This document shows positions 1-48,640 of a stretch of 64,000 nucleotides of DNA, piece by piece. The DNA is from an uncultured Spirochaetia bacterium (GTDB lineage: Bacteria; Desulfobacterota_D; UBA1144; Nemesobacterales; UBA2774). Position 1 is the stretch's first letter. Each line of letters opens with the position of its first letter. The translations under genes were made by a program, and so were the position numbers. The notes beneath the pieces were generated by a model that worked only from the letters and a program-made list of their open reading frames with translations, did no database searches and was not told the origin of the DNA. The stretch lies in NCBI GenBank assembly GCA_964586675.1, contig CAZPHQ010000009.1, forward strand, positions 16,216 to 80,215, read 5' to 3'.

Positions 1-55
1 GAGAAATCTTCTTTCAATCCCCCTTAGGAAAAGGGGGGTACGGGGGGATTTAGTT
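1..55. repeat. G-rich hairpin repeat unit (gagaaatcttc...ccccttaggaaaagggg...ggggggattta), copy 1
   Basis: Near-identical copy at 6524..6577; related variant at 42363..42416. Contains a CCCCC/GGGGG stem with loop ttaggaaaa and a second G-run able to re-pair. Confidence 0.6.
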
Positions 56-69
56 TTATCCTCTTTTTT

Positions 70-100
70 GTCATTCCCGAATGCTTGTATCGGGAATCCA
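70..100. repeat. GTCAT-hairpin-ATCC repeat unit (stem ATTCCCGA / TCGGGAAT)
   Basis: Identical unit at 6377.. and 17047..; partial copy at approx 16055..16080. Perfect 8-bp inverted repeat with 9-nt loop. Confidence 0.65.
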
Positions 101-4832: not shown

Positions 4833-4840
4833 ATCACTTT

Positions 4841-5100
4841 GTCATTGCGAGCTGCAAAGCAGCGCGGCAATCCCGCTTTCACAGTTGTCATTTCGAGCGT
4901 ATGCGAGAAATCTTTATTTATTCTTTAATCCGTCATCCTGAACTACGATTTCGAGCAAGCGAGGAATCGAGAGCACTTGGCCAATTGCACCAACGTTTAT
5001 TTAGTACTGCTCCATGGCAATAGAAACCAAAACATTCAGGATCTCGTCTTTTGTCATTTCGAACTGCGATTTCGAGCGAGCGAGGAATCGAGAGCCCTTA
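4841..5100. repeat. mosaic intergenic repeat cluster B (four or more GTCAT-headed hairpin units)
   Basis: Units: gtcattgcgagctgcaaagcagcgcggcaatcc; gtcatttcgagcgtatgcgagaaatc; gtcatcctgaactacgatttcgagcaagcgaggaatcgagagcac; ...tttagtactgctcc...; gtcatttcgaactgcgatttcgagcgagcgaggaatcgagagccc. Copies of the same unit types recur at 6377.., 15915.. and 17047... Confidence 0.75.
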
Positions 5101-5145
5101 GCCTGCTGCACCTCTGACTCCGCAGCTCTTCGTAACGAATACTTA

Positions 5146-6144
5146 CTACAAAGCAGAAGAATCACATGGCCCCTGACCAGGGTCCGGAATACAAGTGAGT
5201 CCTGCCAGGTACGTAACGCAGTTTAGAAAGAACATCAGGTTGTTCTCCATGGTTACTATTCCCGGGGCCGGATCCGGGGACCCATAATCTCCCACCATTC
5301 CCGAGTTGCCCACCACGATAACCTTCCCTTGGCCATATGGAACCAATATCGAGAAATAGTCATTCGGCAAGTCTATATCATGTCCCACTGCATTATCGTA
5401 TGCTGTTGCCCCTTCGGGAAACCTTACGAGAGGAGTAAATTCAGAAGGCGGCAGCATTATGCAGGAATCGTGAGCGGAAACGCGTGCGACCTGATTGGCA
5501 AGATATCTGACGTCTTCCGGCAAATCCGGCTCCATCTCCATCACCATGTAATCAGGGCGATCCGGATGTTTGTGGGTGACAAAGATGTCCCTGAGGGTAA
5601 TTCCGAACACGCTCGCGAGGGCGGCATCGTTTTGGGTCCAGTTTGGGATCTCTGCAGTTGCGCCATGGTCGCTCATAAGGAGAATACCCCCTCCCTGACT
5701 GACAAAATCCTCCAGCGCCGCCAGCTCGAAATCTGTATATGAAAAACCCGTGCCATCCGGAGGCGGGTTGGGCTCATTAATATAACGGGTCAGGCTGACG
5801 TAGACATCCACATTCTCCAGGCGCTCCGGTCTTATTCGAGACTTAGTGTAACGCACATTCCATTTCAGCCCCGTGGAAAGCCCGTAACTCCTGATAGCTC
5901 CCAGGACTGTATTCAGACGCCGCTTGGTTACCTGGGGGTGTCCGACACCGGGAGGATAACGATGCGGCTTCCTTTGAAACATCACCTGAGAGCTCCAGCT
6001 ATCGAAGAGTGTGTTTATCGTGTTGTTTGCGGTGGCTTCCGCTTGCAGGTCCGTGTCAATGCCCGCAAAAGCAAAATCGCCTTTAAGCAATGCGGCTCCG
6101 GTTCCGCCCAGGGCAAGGAACTTTAAAAAATCTCTCCGGTTCAT
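5146..6144 (-). CDS. Tat-signal secreted hypothetical protein
   Basis: 332 aa. N-terminal twin-arginine motif (NRRDFLKFLALGGTGAAL). No confident family assignment. Flanked on both sides by repeat clusters. Confidence 0.7.
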   Translation of the reverse strand: MNRRDFLKFLALGGTGAALLKGDFAFAGIDTDLQAEATANNTINTLFDSWSSQVMFQRKPHRYPPGVGHPQVTKRRLNTVLGAIRSYGLSTGLKWNVRYTKSRIRPERLENVDVYVSLTRYINEPNPPPDGTGFSYTDFELAALEDFVSQGGGILLMSDHGATAEIPNWTQNDAALASVFGITLRDIFVTHKHPDRPDYMVMEMEPDLPEDVRYLANQVARVSAHDSCIMLPPSEFTPLVRFPEGATAYDNAVGHDIDLPNDYFSILVPYGQGKVIVVGNSGMVGDYGSPDPAPGIVTMENNLMFFLNCVTYLAGLTCIPDPGQGPCDSSAL

Positions 6145-6376
6145 TGTTCTTGTTCCCTCCAGACTGAAACTTGTTACAGCTTCCTAATGATAATGGCCAT
6201 TCTATTAGGACGGGGATTTAAAGTCAATATATGATTTCCTGACTTCTTCCCCTTTAAGGCCTGCCTGTTCCCCGGCGACCTGACCCCGCATCGTCTTTTC
6301 AGTGACGGAATTTCGTCATCCTGAATTTGTTTCAGTATCTTGCTTTAATTCTTCTTGCTGTGGAAATACACTGAGC

Positions 6377-6577
6377 TGTCATTCCCGAATGCTTGTATCG
6401 GGAATCCAGTCTTGAATTTGTCATTTCGAACAACGATTTCGAGCGAGCGAGGAATCGAGAGCCCTCGACAGATTCTAAGAAAGCATATCTGGTACTGCTC
6501 GGAAGTACCCCAAATTAGAACGTGAGAAATCTTCTTTTGATTTCCCCTTAGGAAAAGGGGGAAACAGGGGGATTTAA
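6377..6577. repeat. mosaic intergenic repeat cluster C
   Basis: gtcattcccgaatgcttgtatcgggaatcc + gtcatttcgaacaacgatttcgagcgagcgaggaatcgagagccc + ...atctggtactgctcgg... + G-rich hairpin unit (6524..6577), all shared with other clusters. Confidence 0.75.
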
Positions 6578-7238: not shown

Positions 7239-9884
7239 TCAATTCAACTTGCTCTCCGCCTTTCCCTTCTTTTCTTTCTTCCCGCTCGTCTCCTCGGGGG
7301 TTACCTCTTTCGTCAGGATGAGCTCGTTGTCCTTCCCGACGTCTACCACAACATGGTCTCCTTCCTTGAAGGTGCCGCGAAGAATCTCCGTCGCCAGCGG
7401 GTCCTGTATCATCTTCTGTATAGTCCTCTTGAGCGGCCTCGCGCCGTAAACCGGGTCGTATCCCTTCTCTGCTATGAGCTTCTTCGCCTCCGGAGTAAGG
7501 TCGAGGCTGATCTTCCTCTCGGCGAGCCTCTTCCGCAGGTGCTCGAGCTGGATATCGACAATCTCCTTAATCTGGTCCATGCCGAGCGGTTTGAATATTA
7601 TTGTCTCGTCGATCCGGTTAAGGAACTCCGGCCTGAATGTAGAGCGCAGCAGCTCCATGACCCTGTCTTCCATCGTCGCGGGCCTGTCGATGTATTCCCT
7701 GATGATGTCGCTCCCGAGGTTCGACGTCATGATGATGATCGTGTTCTTGAAATCCACCGTCCGCCCCTGGCCGTCAGTCAAGCGCCCGTCGTCGAGAATC
7801 TGGAGGAGTACGTTAAACACGTCCGGGTGCGCCTTCTCTATCTCGTCGAAGAGTATGACGGCATAGGGCCTTCTCCTGACAGCCTCCGAAAGCTGCCCGC
7901 CCTCCTCGTACCCGACATACCCCGGCGGCGCGCCTATCAGCCTGGCCACCGTATGCTTCTCCATGTACTCGCTCATGTCGATACGTATCATCGCGTGCTC
8001 GTCGTCGAACATGAACTCCGCTAAAGCCCTGGCCAGCTCCGTCTTGCCGACGCCCGTCGGCCCGAGGAACAGGAACGAGCCTATCGGCCTGTTCGGGTCC
8101 GAAAGCCCGGCGCGCGACCGCCTGAGCGCGTTCGACACGGCAGTGATAGCGTTGTCCTGCCCTATGACGCGGAGGTGAAGGTTGTCCTCCATGTGTATCA
8201 GCTTTTCGACCTCGCCTTCGAGGAGCCTCGATACCGGCACGCCCGTCCACTTCGAGACGACCGCCGCGATGTCCTCGGCGTCCACTTCCTCTTTCAGCAT
8301 CTGCTTCCCTTTCTGTATCTCGGCGAGCTCCTTCCCGAGCTTGTCGAGCTTCTGGTTAAGCTCCGGGAGCCTTCCGTAAAGAAGCTCGGAGGCCGTAGAC
8401 AAGTCGCCCTTCCTCTGCGCTATCTCGGCGTCGGAGCGGAGCTGGTCGATCTCCGCTTTTATCTTTCTCATTTCAGATATATGCTCCTTCTCGCGCGTCC
8501 ACTGCGCCTTGAGCGTATCGCCCTCTTCCTTGAGGTTGGCGATGCTCTTTTCTATTTCTGATAGACGCTCCTGCGAAGCCGGGTCCTTTTCCTTCTTAAG
8601 CGCCTCGCGTTCGATTTCGAGCTGCATTATGCGCCGCTGAACATCATCGATCTCGCCCGGAAGGGAGTCTATCTCCATCTTCAGCTTCGCAGCCGCCTCG
8701 TCAATGAGGTCGACAGCCTTGTCCGGGAGGAACCGCGCCGTTATGTAGCGGTTCGAGAGGACGGCCGCCGCTATGATGGCCTCGTCCTTTATCTTGACGC
8801 CGTGATGCACCTCGTATTTCTCCTTGAGCCCGCGAAGGATCGATATCGTCTCCTCGACAGACGGCTCGTCGACGTACACCTGCTGGAAACGCCTTTCGAG
8901 CGCGGCGTCTTTCTCTATATATTTTCTATACTCGTCGAGCGTCGTGGCCCCGATACAGTGAAGCTCTCCCCTCGCGAGGGCGGGCTTCAGCATGTTGGAG
9001 GCGTCCATTGCCCCCTCCGAGCCGCCCGCGCCGACGACAGTGTGTATCTCGTCTATAAAAAGTATTATTTGACCGGCGGATTCGGTCACTTCCTTAAGCA
9101 CTGCTTTAAGTCTTTCCTCGAACTGCCCCCTGTACTTCGCCCCGGCTATAAGGGCCCCGATGTCGAGCGCTATGAGCTTTTTGTTCTTTAGCCCCTCGGG
9201 AACGTCCCCGTTCACAATCCTCTGGGCAAGCCCTTCGACTATAGCCGTCTTTCCAACGCCCGGCTCCCCGATGAGGACGGGGTTGTTCTTTGTCCGGCGG
9301 GACAATACCTGTATGACGCGCCTTATCTCCTCGTCCCTCCCGATGACAGGGTCAATCTTCCCCTCCCTCGCGAGCTCGGTGAAATCCCTCCCATACTGCT
9401 TCAGCGACTGCAGGGTGTCCTCGGGCGACTGGCTCGTAACGTTCTGTCCGCCCCTCACTTCCTTAATAGCCTTAAGCACGTTGTCGCGCGCTATGCCTAG
9501 CCGCTTGAGCTCGTTCTTAAGCTCGCCAGTCGCGTCCTCGACTATCCCCAGGAAGAGATGCTCCGTGCTCGTGTACTCGTCCCCGAGCGACTTCGCTTCC
9601 TTTTCGGCCGTGTTGAAGGCCTTGCTCAGTTCGCGGCTGAGGTATATCTGGTCGTCCTCGGACTGCACCTTCGGCAGCCTGGCAACCTCCTTCCGCGCGG
9701 TTTCCCGAAGCGCGTTTACATTTGCACCGAGCTTTCCGAGGATCTGCGACGGTATGCTCCCGTCGGCCAGAAGCGTTTCGAGAACGTGCGGAATGTCGAT
9801 GACCTGGTTCCTGTTTTCACGCGCAAGGGCCTGCGCCTCGGAAACGGCTTCCTGCGCTTTTATTGTTAACTTGTCGAATTTCAT
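7239..9884 (-). CDS. clpB: ATP-dependent chaperone ClpB
   Basis: 881 aa. Clp N-domain, two AAA+ modules each with Walker A GxxGxGKT, and a long coiled-coil middle domain. Confidence 0.97.
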
Positions 9885-11460: not shown

Positions 11461-11510
11461 GCAGGCTTCGCGGTATTATCGGAAAACCGATAACAACATT
11501 AAAAACAAAA

Positions 11511-11550
11511 AGCGGGAAGCATCCTCAGGGTGCTTTCCGCTTTTCTTTTT
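11511..11550. terminator. bidirectional intrinsic terminator
   Basis: Hairpin agcgggaagca/tgctttccgct followed by tttcttttt on the + strand and preceded by an A-run (T-run on the - strand). Sits between the convergent small ORF and the acyl-CoA dehydrogenase gene. Confidence 0.65.
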
Positions 11551-15872: not shown

Positions 15873-16135
15873 AATCCGACGTCGCGGCTGTGAGCCGCGA
15901 CAACCATCCATCCGTCATCCTGAATTTAATTCAGGATATCCTTTTTATTCTGTCATCTCGAACAACGATTTCGAGCGAGCGAGGAATCGGACGCCGCCCC
16001 CTTAAGCACAAGCGTTTATCTAGTACCGCTCAAGACCTGCTTTCTTTAGTATCAAGCTTGTATCGGGAATCCATTCTATCATTTTTGTCATTTCGAGCGT
16101 ATGCGAGAAATCTATTTTTGCTTATAATCCATCAC
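15873..16135. repeat. mosaic intergenic repeat cluster D
   Basis: gtcgcggc-tgtga-gccgcgac hairpin, then gtcatcctgaatttaattcaggatatcc, gtcatctcgaacaacgatttcgagcgagcgaggaatcg..., ...atctagtaccgctcaag..., half-unit agcttgtatcgggaatcca, gtcatttcgagcgtatgcgagaaatc. Confidence 0.75.
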
Positions 16136-17044: not shown

Positions 17045-17145
17045 ATGTCATTCCCGAATGCTTGTATCGGGAATCCATTTCCGCCAGCAATCCATCAAGC
17101 GTTTCTTGTCATCTCGAACGTACGTGAGAGATCTATTTGTAATTT
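17045..17145. repeat. mosaic intergenic repeat cluster E
   Basis: gtcattcccgaatgcttgtatcgggaatcca + ...caagcgtttc... + gtcatctcgaacgtacgtgagagatc. Confidence 0.7.
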
Positions 17146-17298: not shown

Positions 17299-17748
17299 AT
17301 GGAAAAGGTGGTCTGCACTCATCCGAGGGCTAAGCGCGATTACGACATCGAGGAAAATTACGAGGCCGGCATCGAGCTCAAGGGCTCCGAGGTAAAATCC
17401 CTCCGCGCGAACCAGGCGAGCATAAAGGAGAGCTTCGCCATGATCAGGGACGAAGAGGTGTTTCTCATTAACAGCTACATCGCCCCCTACGAACAGGCGA
17501 ACCTGTTCAACCACGAGCCCCGGCGCGAGCGTAAGCTCCTCCTCAACAAGCGCGAGATAAACCGCCTCATGGGGAAAACCCTCATCCGCGGCTACACCCT
17601 CATCCCGCTCAAGATCTACTTCAAGAAAGGGAAGGCTAAGGTCGACCTCGCCCTCGGCAAGGGAAAGAAAGTCCACGACCGCCGCGACGACATCAAGAAG
17701 CGCGAGGCCGACAGGGAAATGGAAAAGGCCTTAAAGCGTCGCTACTGA
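17299..17748 (+). CDS. smpB: SsrA-binding protein
   Basis: 149 aa, collinear with SmpB (…AKRDYDIEE.YEAGIEL.GSEVKSLR…GYTLIPLKIYFK.GKAK…). Confidence 0.95.
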   Translation: MEKVVCTHPRAKRDYDIEENYEAGIELKGSEVKSLRANQASIKESFAMIRDEEVFLINSYIAPYEQANLFNHEPRRERKLLLNKREINRLMGKTLIRGYTLIPLKIYFKKGKAKVDLALGKGKKVHDRRDDIKKREADREMEKALKRRY

Positions 17749-17884: not shown

Positions 17885-18237
<353 letters not shown>

Positions 18238-42363: not shown

Positions 42364-42416
42364 TTCGCTTCAATTCCCTCTTTGGGAAAAGGAGGGTCAG
42401 GGAGGATTTATTTTTT
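42363..42416. repeat. divergent copy of the G-rich hairpin unit between convergent genes
   Basis: tcaattccctctttgggaaaaggagggtcagggaggattta parallels tcaatcccccttaggaaaaggggggtacggggggattta. Confidence 0.4.
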
Positions 42417-47269: not shown

Positions 47270-47317
47270 AAAAAAACGGCACCCCATTACAATATCTCTC
47301 TAACCTTCCTTGAGTTA

Positions 47318-47352
47318 CCCCCTCCCGAAAGGGAGGGGGTATTTCTTGTTTA
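47318..47352 (+). terminator. intrinsic terminator
   Basis: ccccctccc-gaaa-gggaggggg followed by tatttcttgttt. Confidence 0.75.
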
Positions 47353-47563
47353 GACTGTCTTCCTATCCTCGGGAAGCCAAGATTATTGGCGGTCAGTTTC
47401 TTCATGTACGTCTTCTCCTTGTAATATGCTATATATGTTATATATACTTTTAAGCGCGGAGCCTGCACGCCGCATTTATATCATTATCAAATTCCGGGTT
47501 ACATATACCGTCCGCGCAGCGGGTGAATCAAATCTCCACCCTCGCTACGTCGTAAAACGCACA

Positions 47564-48640
47564 CTACGTGTGCTCCTCCCAGGAGAGCATGCCGCTCCTG
47601 TATTCGGTGACCCTCGTCTCGAAGAAGTTTTTTTCCTTCCTGAGGTCTATAATCTCGCTCATCCACGGAAACGGGTTCTGTGAATGGTAGACCTTTTCGA
47701 GCCTTATACGCTCGAGCCGCCTGTCGGCGATGTAGCGGACGTACTCACTGACGAGGCCGGAATTAAGCCCGAGTATCCCCGCCGGGAGACAGTCGCGCGT
47801 GTAAGTCATTTCGAGCTCGACCGCTTTTTTGATATTGTCAGTGAGGAGCGCCTTGAACTCATTCGTCCATATACCCGGGTTCTCGTCGACGATGTTGTTT
47901 ATGAGCTCGGTGCCGAAGGCGAGGTGTATGGACTCGTCCCGGAGTATGAACTGGAACTGCTCCCCGAGCCCGGCCATCTTGTTCTGCCGGAGGAGGGACA
48001 GTATCATCGCGAAGCCGGCGTAAAAGAATATGCCCTCCATGATGACGTAGAACCCGACTAGGTCGTGAACGAAGCTCCGTATGTTGTCCTCGGTGTTCGT
48101 CGTAAAGCCGGGATCGAGGACGTTCTTCGTGAGCCTGACGACGAAATCGTCCTTCTCCTTTATCGTGGGGTTGTTTATATACATGTTGTAGACCTCGTCT
48201 GGGTCGAGGCCGAGCGTGTCGCAGCAGTAGATGAACGTGTCCGTGTGAATGGCCTCCTCGAATGCCTGGCGGAGTAGATACTGCCTGCACTCGGGGTTCG
48301 TGATATGGCGGTAGATCGAGAGCACGATGTTGTTGGCCGTGAGGCTCTCGGCCGTCGAGAAGAAGCCGAGGTTGTAGATTATCATCCGGCGCTCCTCTTC
48401 TGAAAGTGCGGCCTGGTCTTTCCACATCTCGATGTCCTTCTGCATGTTGACCTCGTCGGGCACCCAGTTGTTCGCGACGCCGACTTTATAATACTCCCGG
48501 GCCCACTTGTACTTGATCGGGAGTATCTTGTTCGGGTCCGTGACAGAGCAGTTGATTATGCGCTTGTGGTCGCCGCCCGCCTTTCCACCGCTTCCGCCGA
48601 CCTTGCCGTGGCTGCCGTTGCCGTTTTCGTTTATTGACAT
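47564..48640 (-). CDS. nrdB: ribonucleotide reductase class Ia beta subunit
   Basis: Ferritin-like di-iron fold residues present. Start at MSINENG, which has a GAGGAGG RBS. Overlaps the nrdA stop by 10 nt. Confidence 0.9.
   Translation of the reverse strand: MSINENGNGSHGKVGGSGGKAGGDHKRIINCSVTDPNKILPIKYKWAREYYKVGVANNWVPDEVNMQKDIEMWKDQAALSEEERRMIIYNLGFFSTAESLTANNIVLSIYRHITNPECRQYLLRQAFEEAIHTDTFIYCCDTLGLDPDEVYNMYINNPTIKEKDDFVVRLTKNVLDPGFTTNTEDNIRSFVHDLVGFYVIMEGIFFYAGFAMILSLLRQNKMAGLGEQFQFILRDESIHLAFGTELINNIVDENPGIWTNEFKALLTDNIKKAVELEMTYTRDCLPAGILGLNSGLVSEYVRYIADRRLERIRLEKVYHSQNPFPWMSEIIDLRKEKNFFETRVTEYRSGMLSWEEHT

Follow-up and report, generated by a model that had tools for sequence, protein, structure and literature searches.

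CGTC/TGTC-tagged palindromic repeats in one-way intergenic arrays that carry loop inserts and differ between closely related strains

The 64,000-nucleotide stretch of DNA analysed here (the window; contig CAZPHQ010000009.1 of assembly GCA_964586675.1, from an uncultured Spirochaetia bacterium) carries on its + strand 13 short repeated modules, each made up of GTCAT, a hairpin and a closing ATC. They occupy five intergenic sites, all in the first 17.2 kb, and none of them is intragenic. The five sites and all the stems quoted in the initial annotation were read at every site and are present as described there. A scanner for GTCAT, a hairpin and a C returned 13 matches on the + strand, compared to 2.7 +/- 1.6 (maximum 8) in 200 dinucleotide shuffles, so that modules are about 5 times as numerous as in shuffled sequence; the 4 matches on the - strand are at chance level. 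The pattern GTCATYNCGARC, with at most one mismatch, matches 18 times where 5.6 matches are expected, a number reached in none of 100 shuffles. Beyond 17.2 kb, the window holds no further module of the GTCAT kind, and two candidate extra copies, at 47805 and 41223, were dropped as chance matches within coding sequence.

All units are built on the same plan: the (C/T)GTC tag is unpaired, the hairpin has a foot of AT-Y-N-C paired with G-N-R-AT, and the tail is rich in C. The tag is found in each of the 13 window modules (TGTC in 10, CGTC in 3), and every stem begins and ends with AT (in A3, columns 4/25 and 5/24 do not vary). The tail starts with C in all modules but the B copy at 15914; it reads CCA in the three copies of module A, CCC in module C, (AT)CC or CTC in module B and CTT or CTA in module D. 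Loops are 3-9 nt long in the window. Module A has an 8-bp stem and a 9-nt loop and module B a 9-bp stem and a 3-nt loop, while the stems of C and D are interrupted, with 5+2 or 5+5 pairs separated by G.A or internal loops. Two modules recur as identical copies, A three times and D twice.

At the left edge, positions 1..11 (+) hold the 3' half of a D module (gagaaatcttc), split by the end of the window and equal to the D 3' arm plus linker of 6524-6535. Next come a companion repeat, P (12..52, +), in which a C-run precedes two G-runs (CCCCCTTAGGAAAAGGGGGG-tac-GGGGGGATTTA), and module A (70..100, +; tGTC ATTCCCGA atgcttgta TCGGGAAT CCA; DNA fold of -6.9 kcal/mol, z = -3.9), which sits past the canonical terminator of the neighbouring gene (179-150, -). 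The second site opens 9 nt past the stop codon of pyrF with module C (4841..4874, +; tGTC ATTGC-ga-GCTGC aaa GCAGC-gcg-GCAAT CCC), followed by module D (4887..4913, +; tGTC ATTTC-GA-GC gtat GC-GA-GAAAT CT), which contains tandem G.A mismatches and whose type shows covariation, and by two of the long units discussed below. The third site consists of a degenerate B module (6315..6339, +; cGTC ATCCTGAAtttgtTTCAGtAT C), the second copy of module A (6378..6408, +), a long unit, and the second copy of the P repeat (6536..6576, +). At the fourth are found module B (15914..15941, +; cGTC ATCCTGAAT tta ATTCAGGAT ATCC; DNA fold z = -5.9), another long unit and the second copy of module D (16087..16113, +). 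The fifth, between the Dtd and SmpB genes, holds the third copy of module A (17047..17077, +), a companion segment, K (17079..17099, +; ttccgccagcaatccatcaag), and module D' (17108..17134, +; tGTC ATCTC-GA-AC gtac GT-GA-GAGAT CT), which differs from D by two compensatory pair changes. A diverged P repeat (42370..42410, +) is the sole repeat of these families past 17.2 kb. The SmpB gene (17299-17748, +) and, after it, a full-length tmRNA (17885-18237, 173 bits) are ordinary and serve as a landmark. Segment K (ttccgcMagcaatccatcaag) was regularly found 3' of module A in three unrelated contigs, namely the window (17079-17099), a phage contig referred to as L016 (8475-8500, the A+K pairing spanning 8447-8500) and contig L095, which suggests a longer composite unit, A+K.

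The initial annotation also listed a longer unit occurring four times. The four occurrences stand (starts at 4932, 5053, 6420 and 15952), the last of them going on with ggacgcc, not gagagc, but they do not represent a separate module: each is a hairpin that carries in its loop an insert of about 90 nt, hereafter X. The 3' arms of the interrupted hairpins are found after X, at 5034-5043, 6522-6531 and 16056-16072. At 4932..5043 (+), X (about 90 nt) splits a B module, cGTC ATCCTGAAC (X) ATTCAGGAT C, and is enclosed by the B hairpin arms GTCATCCTGAAC ... ATTCAGGATC; this unit is 88% identical to positions 3542-3671 of L016. The unit at 5053..5097 (+) has a D''-type 5' arm and the 5' part of X with no recognisable 3' arm, and is nearly identical to 6420-6464, the beginning of a D'' module that carries X in its loop (6420..6531, +; tGTC ATTTCGAAC (X) GTGAGAAAT C). 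The fourth (15952..16072, +) is a chimera of a D' 5' arm, an A-type X and the 3' arm of module A (GCTTGTATCGGGAATCC); its X belongs to a subfamily that matches the A-hosted copies of two other contigs, L055 and L198. X starts with a REP-like hairpin of its own (REP, repetitive extragenic palindrome), C-GATTTC-GAGCGAGCGA-GGAATC-G, which shows a G-C to A-T covariation, and RNAalifold finds little structure in X as an RNA beyond the host arms and this inner hairpin (-8.4 kcal/mol). The subfamilies of X follow the type of the host hairpin, which means that arms and X probably propagate together, as one unit of about 110 nt, and would make the chimera at 15952-16072 a recombinant. Small inserts of about 20-33 nt (e.g. 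CCTGCCCGGCGTAGCTTTAGCGAAGAGGGGAAC) also lie inside the loops of B and A hairpins (L016 8944-9000 and 6428-6480; 8762-8817 of contig L189), so that nesting is not confined to X.

It had been proposed from the sequence that conserved flanks enclose covarying stems and that the family is not the product of simple duplication, and a check for an excess of compensatory substitutions in the stems had been suggested. This check was run on D-type units taken from loci fetched with a different pattern; only GTCAT, two GA and ATC were fixed, which avoids selection on pairing. All five free positions pair in 24 of the 25 D-type matches, with 2-4 pair types per position. In an alignment of 17 distinct sequences, from which the single chance match and units with 5-nt loops were excluded, 100% of the cells pair, and both sides have changed in 26 cells, compared to 7.4 +/- 3.1 in shuffled alignments, none of 500 of which reaches 26. 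When the partner is slid in the same alignment, pairing falls to 10-60%. Over all loci, eight-pair stems are perfect in 271 cases and contain one mismatch in 32. The hairpin is under selection, and both proposals are borne out.

Chromosomal relatives, obtained by a metagenome scan with PyrF, made it possible to follow the arrays between strains; three of them, L198, L189 and L190, differ from the window in their arrays. Five further metagenome contigs (L001-L005) are 99.99-100% identical to the window and represent the same population, so that they carry no polymorphism information. In L198, whose genes are about 96% identical to those of the window, the order past pyrF is P, A with X, a different C and half a B, where the window has C, D, B with X and D with X. 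The D'' hairpin is empty and intact in L198 (GTCATTTCAAACGAACGTGAGAAATA), and filled with X both in the window and in L189, which is more distant (about 85% identical). Positions 4835-6416 of the window are missing altogether from L189 and L190. This segment is made up of a gene encoding a 332-aa protein with a twin-arginine translocation (TAT) signal (5146-6144, -) and of both flanking arrays, and it is present in L198. Direct copies of the 5' part of X stand on both sides of the gene in the window, 5053-5097 on the left and 6420-6464 on the right, of which L189 has a single copy; the whole segment has the look of a gene cassette indel mediated by the arrays. L198 carries, beyond the 332-aa gene, a second copy, 98 nt long, of the pyrF 3' end (1937-2034), of which the window keeps a mere remnant near 6300-6320, apparently after a deletion that ended at a GTCATC head. 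The syntenic 7-9 kb are free of units in relatives whose PyrF is about 69% identical.

A comparable picture is offered by four phages with 68-98% identity in the flanking proteins: the region from the portal gene to the next gene, 600-1400 nt long, varies by entire units, the junctions falling at GTCAT heads. Between strains that are nearly identical, arrays acquire, lose and swap units as wholes, and the loops of hairpins take up further small inserts. The likeness to the bacterial interspersed mosaic elements (BIMEs) and the intergenic mosaic elements of Neisseria (NIMEs), noticed initially, is upheld by these comparisons. The accompanying idea, that modules are shuffled between loci, holds for the mosaic itself; the shuffling is better explained by gain and loss of whole modules, deletions between GTCAT heads and inserts nested in loops.

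The modules form neither a new nor a lineage-specific family: they are found in many phyla and in phage contigs. In the GTDB species reference genomes, module A was counted in more than 117 stretches, which come from more than 15 phyla, where about 0.7 matches would be expected by chance (22 fixed bases in 596 Gb, by arithmetic). The carriers are Nitrospirota, Omnitrophota, Elusimicrobiota, Zixibacteria, Dadabacteria, Atribacteria, KSB1, Calditrichia and Planctomycetes, and also Ignavibacteria, Bacteroidota, Thermodesulfobacteriota, several gamma-proteobacteria and others. From taxon to taxon the loops vary, while stems and tags stay the same. Among the contigs of IMG/VR, 49 contain module D and 19 module A. 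A literature search with the sequence strings of the units returned unrelated primers only.

Four syntenic contigs (L016, L035, L063 and L066) encode terminase, portal, tail-tube and tail-morphogenesis proteins and thus belong to tailed phages. All four carry the same mosaic, and very densely: L016 has 29 units in 13 kb. Throughout L016 1-13185, as in the three other contigs, intergenic regions of 0.6-1.4 kb between structural genes are filled with repeats (up to 29 units), all of the GTCAT units being antisense to the genes. Phages are not usually packed so loosely. The P repeats, in which a loop separates a C-run from a G-run and a short spacer leads to a second G-run and then ATTTA (CCCCCTTAGGAAAAGGGGG-N-GGGGGATTTA), always lie on the strand of the GTCAT units, and their strict pattern occurs only in these same phage contigs and in contig L203. 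Another repeat, S, is found at 4950-4990 and 8685-8725 of L016; in it, a C-rich arm precedes two G-rich arms with mirror symmetry (TCCCCTCTCCC..GGGAGAGGGG..GGGGTGAGGG). Either G arm might serve as the partner of the C arm, or a purine-motif triplex might arise from all three.

In the window, as in eight further contigs, the units lie on one strand (29:0, 15:1 and 0:22 are examples); in every case this is the C-rich one, which is also that of the companion repeats P, S and K. Modules no more than 150 nt apart, in the window and the related contigs, form 15 head-to-tail pairs and no inverted pair; in loci of other phyla, 59 of 77 neighbouring pairs have their tags outside, 12 are head-to-tail and 6 have their tags inside. 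In the phage contigs, where the units are antisense to every gene, replication and transcription are inseparable. In the window, four arrays lie at the 3' end of a - strand gene, the one between the genes for the 332-aa protein and a 71-aa protein being antisense, and the array at 17047-17134, between Dtd and SmpB, is in sense. With gene orientation mixed in this way, the direction of transcription does not fully explain the strand rule. The cumulative GC skew of the window has its minimum near 47-48 kb, beside a 589-nt intergenic region (47270-47858) upstream of the ribonucleotide reductase gene. This could be a replication origin; GTCAT units flank it on neither side.

The repeats are real, and they belong to the CGTC/TGTC-tagged superfamily of REPs, the class of dRS3 and RPE-4/6, set in intergenic mosaics of the NIME/BIME kind. 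Four families of CGTC-tagged REPs have been described in five phyla, and Neisseria dRS3 (CGTC-1) and the Rickettsia palindromic elements RPE-4/6 were placed in them (Di Nocera, De Gregorio & Rocco 2013, BMC Genomics 14:522; PMC3733652). Their tag is CGTC, often TGTC (with a variant CCTC), the first two stem pairs are A-T and T-A, the tail is CCA, the stems are uninterrupted over 8-9 bp and the loops are 4-5 nt long. Head-to-tail pairs were called 'negligible' and clusters rare, and bulged or atypical units were said to have escaped the search of the authors (PMC3733652). The units of the window have in common with this class the tag, the AT foot, the C-rich tail, the intergenic location, the presence of several types per genome, the spread over many phyla and the lack of a linked transposase, and the published doublets with tags outside recur in the loci of other phyla studied here. 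The window units differ by loops of 3-9 nt and by interrupted C and D stems with a conserved tandem G.A. In place of doublets, the window has only head-to-tail arrays on one strand, with inserts nested in loops and with phage carriage, a difference that lies in the organisation and not in the unit. To the five published phyla, the present data add the first set of carriers listed above, from Nitrospirota to Planctomycetes, along with others, and the tailed phages. The class has already been described and these repeats are not a new kind of element; what is new is an organisational variant and the evidence for rapid change at the level of the unit. Unusual here are the strictly head-to-tail arrays on the C-rich strand, the loop inserts of about 90 nt, the complete reshuffling of an array at about 96% identity and the array-flanked gene indel.

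Within the class, the closest parallel is provided by Neisseria, where NIME arrays are linked to variable neighbouring genes and the Nf phage integrates into dRS3 (PMC1797815). The features shared with dRS3 and the NIMEs are an ATTCCC...GGGAAT foot, long mixed intergenic arrays that vary between strains, variable genes and a link to phages; NIME-like arrays with interleaved units of 50-150 bp lie in the window at 4841-5097, 6315-6576 and 15914-16113. However, dRS3 is a 20-bp ATTCCC-N8-GGGAAT and module A is ATTCCC-N13-GGGAAT, most window modules have other stems, and the unit closest to dRS3 is a phage type, E (ATTCCTGC-N4-GCAGGAAT). In the NIMEs, RS units lie between complete copies of dRS3, whereas here the long inserts lie within a split hairpin. 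The GTAG-tagged REPs of E. coli and Pseudomonas, with their BIMEs and their inverted doublets (REPINs), also combine a tag with an imperfect palindrome, form intergenic mosaic clusters, with inverted doublets in many carriers, and are suspected of acting as single-stranded DNA hairpin substrates. Their tag is GTAG in place of GTC, the partners within a BIME or REPIN alternate in orientation whereas the window arrays run one way, and no gene for a REP-associated tyrosine transposase (RAYT) is flanked by units in the 64-kb window or in the 1.6 Mb of loci examined; GTAG REPs with RAYT are an analogue for the mechanism only. The small dispersed repeats (SDRs) of cyanobacteria are reportedly very small, nested in one another, and gained or lost between close relatives. 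Like the units studied here, SDRs, as far as such reports go, and RPEs are some tens of bases long, nest in one another and come and go between close relatives; their sequences are different, and RPEs often lie in frame within genes, where no window module is found.

We consider it likely that the units propagate at the level of DNA, with the participation of recombination. Several structural features point to DNA, and to one strand of it. The conserved interruption of the D and C stems is a tandem G.A on the GTCAT strand and a T.C on the complement. The three-base loops of D are G-N-A in 44 of 63 cases, and the four-base loops are G-N-A-Y, not GNRA. DNA mini-hairpins of the d(GCGAAGC) type and GNA triloops are exceptionally stable in DNA. 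Nearest-neighbour DNA energies make A and B strong hairpins, as the z-scores given above indicate. The units would then behave as selfish or recombinogenic DNA and not as RNA signals, and their functional form would be the single-stranded DNA hairpin of the GTCAT strand, the sole strand with both the tandem G.A pairs and the G-N-A loops. The hairpin may be recognised by an enzyme encoded elsewhere, either a hairpin-specific nuclease of the HUH type or a site-specific recombinase, while ordinary recombination between GTCAT heads would generate the chimeras, the deletions and the gene-cassette indel. Phages with the same arrays would be the likely vehicle between hosts. That a dedicated hairpin-recognising enzyme exists is a more tentative proposal. 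A still bolder version, which we regard as doubtful, is that the units are substrates of a hairpin-specific single-stranded DNA machinery common to many phyla and carried by phages, which here would work one way relative to replication and prefer the loops of existing hairpins, giving rise to nested arrays that move genes as cassettes.

The search for such an enzyme gave the following results. No open reading frame (ORF) of the window matches transposase or recombinase families, which agrees, as far as the transposase families of Pfam are concerned, with the initial statement that no cognate transposase is present in the window. When all ORFs of 183 module-bearing loci were clustered, no recurrent mobile-element protein emerged, the top clusters being generic ABC-F ATPases, sensor kinases and phage proteins. 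Pfam gave no recombinase among the remaining ORFs of the phage contigs. A phmmer search with E. coli RayT detected two RAYT-like ORFs of the Y1 type in 1.6 Mb of module-bearing DNA, neither of them flanked by modules. They lie in L010 (1167-1817, -) and L015 (1407-2165, -), two homologous, high-GC phage contigs of acidobacterial type that contain D-type doublets.

A number of observations weigh against the interpretation set out above. No mobilising enzyme was found in the window, in the 183 loci or in the 1.6 Mb. All the turnover observed could stem from recombination or gene conversion alone, without any transposition. D and D' are weak hairpins by nearest-neighbour DNA energies (z = -0.7 and +0.9); the parameters are assumed probably not to credit tandem G.A pairs. 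Mismatches of the G.T and A.C kinds are about equally frequent in the stems (11 and 9) and give no strand-specific signal. Gene orientation and the strand rule are confounded in the phage contigs, and about eight independent contigs underlie the rule. Finally, X could be assigned neither a target-site duplication nor a clean insertion footprint, and the notion that X hops freely into hairpins is weakened by the fact that its subfamilies follow the type of the host hairpin.

The alternative that survives best is that the arrays exist because they promote the exchange of neighbouring genes and the integration of phages, and not through transposition of the units. The 332-aa gene, flanked by arrays and forming an indel bracketed by direct repeats, and the pyrF-end duplicate that L198 carries beyond this gene would both fit such a role, as would the chimeric units joined at GTCAT heads and the occurrence of the same arrays in phages. 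There is a precedent in the hypothesis put forward for the NIMEs and in the integration of the Nf phage into dRS3 (PMC1797815). Nevertheless, neither the window nor the examined parts of the phage contigs showed a recombinase or integrase, a gene for a phage or IS110-type recombinase being likewise absent from the DNA examined, and no insertion sequence or prophage end was seen inserted in a module. Moreover, exchange alone leaves unexplained both the identity of 22-30-nt units over more than 15 phyla and their one-strand orientation. We find it rather improbable as a complete account; it overlaps with DNA-level propagation and is not a true alternative to it.

A function in RNA is less probable still. 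The modules would be cis-acting elements of the transcripts, that is, terminators, 3'-end stabilisers or small RNAs, kept for their function. Their position invites this idea: three of the five sites begin 9-42 nt past the stop codon of a + strand gene, in sense, and the four arrays already mentioned lie at the 3' end of a - strand gene. The published class is likewise found mostly downstream of genes, and an action in RNA was suggested for it (PMC3733652). In addition, a T.G pair in the inner hairpin of X, found in 7 of 10 copies, is tolerated on the GTCAT strand only. Yet the orientation of the units follows the DNA strand and not the gene, being sense at Dtd-SmpB and antisense between the 332-aa and 71-aa genes and in the phages. 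As terminators, the modules were rejected: the scan found one of 13 to be terminator-like (B, at 15917-15937), and the genes own separate canonical terminators (7229-7198, -, and 11508-11544, as well as the one that module A at 70-100 lies beyond). Against the models of Rfam 15, only the tmRNA of the window reaches its gathering score, and the arrays match nothing relevant even at E <= 1; nor are the G-N-A and G-N-A-Y loops of the GNRA type. Lastly, the content of the arrays differs between strains that are about 96% identical, which makes a required signal unlikely, since such a signal should not change so fast.

The comparison with REP/RAYT or IS200-guide-type elements made at the outset was correct in that the class is REP-like, and is not supported in the link to RAYT or IS200: the tag is (C/T)GTC and not GTAG, and no such gene was found linked to the modules in the DNA examined. 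We therefore think it improbable, slightly more so than a role in RNA, that these are REPs or REPINs in the strict sense, mobilised by a RAYT or an IS200/IS605 transposase encoded outside the window. The architecture of tag and hairpin, the REPIN-like inverted doublets that predominate in other phyla and a strand bias reminiscent of single-strand transposition would all suit such elements. However, the published survey did not find, in any carrier, a Y1 transposase gene with CGTC units on its flanks (PMC3733652), and the two RAYT-like ORFs detected here stand apart from modules. Also, the GTCAT strand is C-rich; if GC skew marks the leading strand, the strand that forms the stable hairpin would not be the lagging-strand template used by IS200/IS605. 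As for chance palindromes or ordinary local duplications, which the identical window copies of A and D might bring to mind, they are refuted for practical purposes by counts far above those of shuffled sequence, by the compensatory changes and by the recurrence of the same stems and tags, with varying loops, in unrelated phyla and in phages.

Propagation as DNA, with recombination, is thus the interpretation we retain, and it bears on a class of elements of some size. CGTC-tagged palindromes are one of the two large classes of bacterial REPs, the one without a known way of spreading. The window and its relatives add to what was known of them a wider range of hosts, phages included, the gain, loss and nesting of units at the level of the strain, and a strict strand rule, while the tandem G.A pairs and G-N-A loops, found on one strand, hint at a one-strand DNA hairpin as the active form. 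For the genomes that carry them, the arrays mark places of gene exchange; they also give rise to spurious small ORFs and are likely points of breakage and mis-assembly in metagenome bins. Should the units indeed be the substrates of a single-stranded DNA machinery, the CGTC REPs, orphans since 2013, would gain a mechanism and a tractable model.

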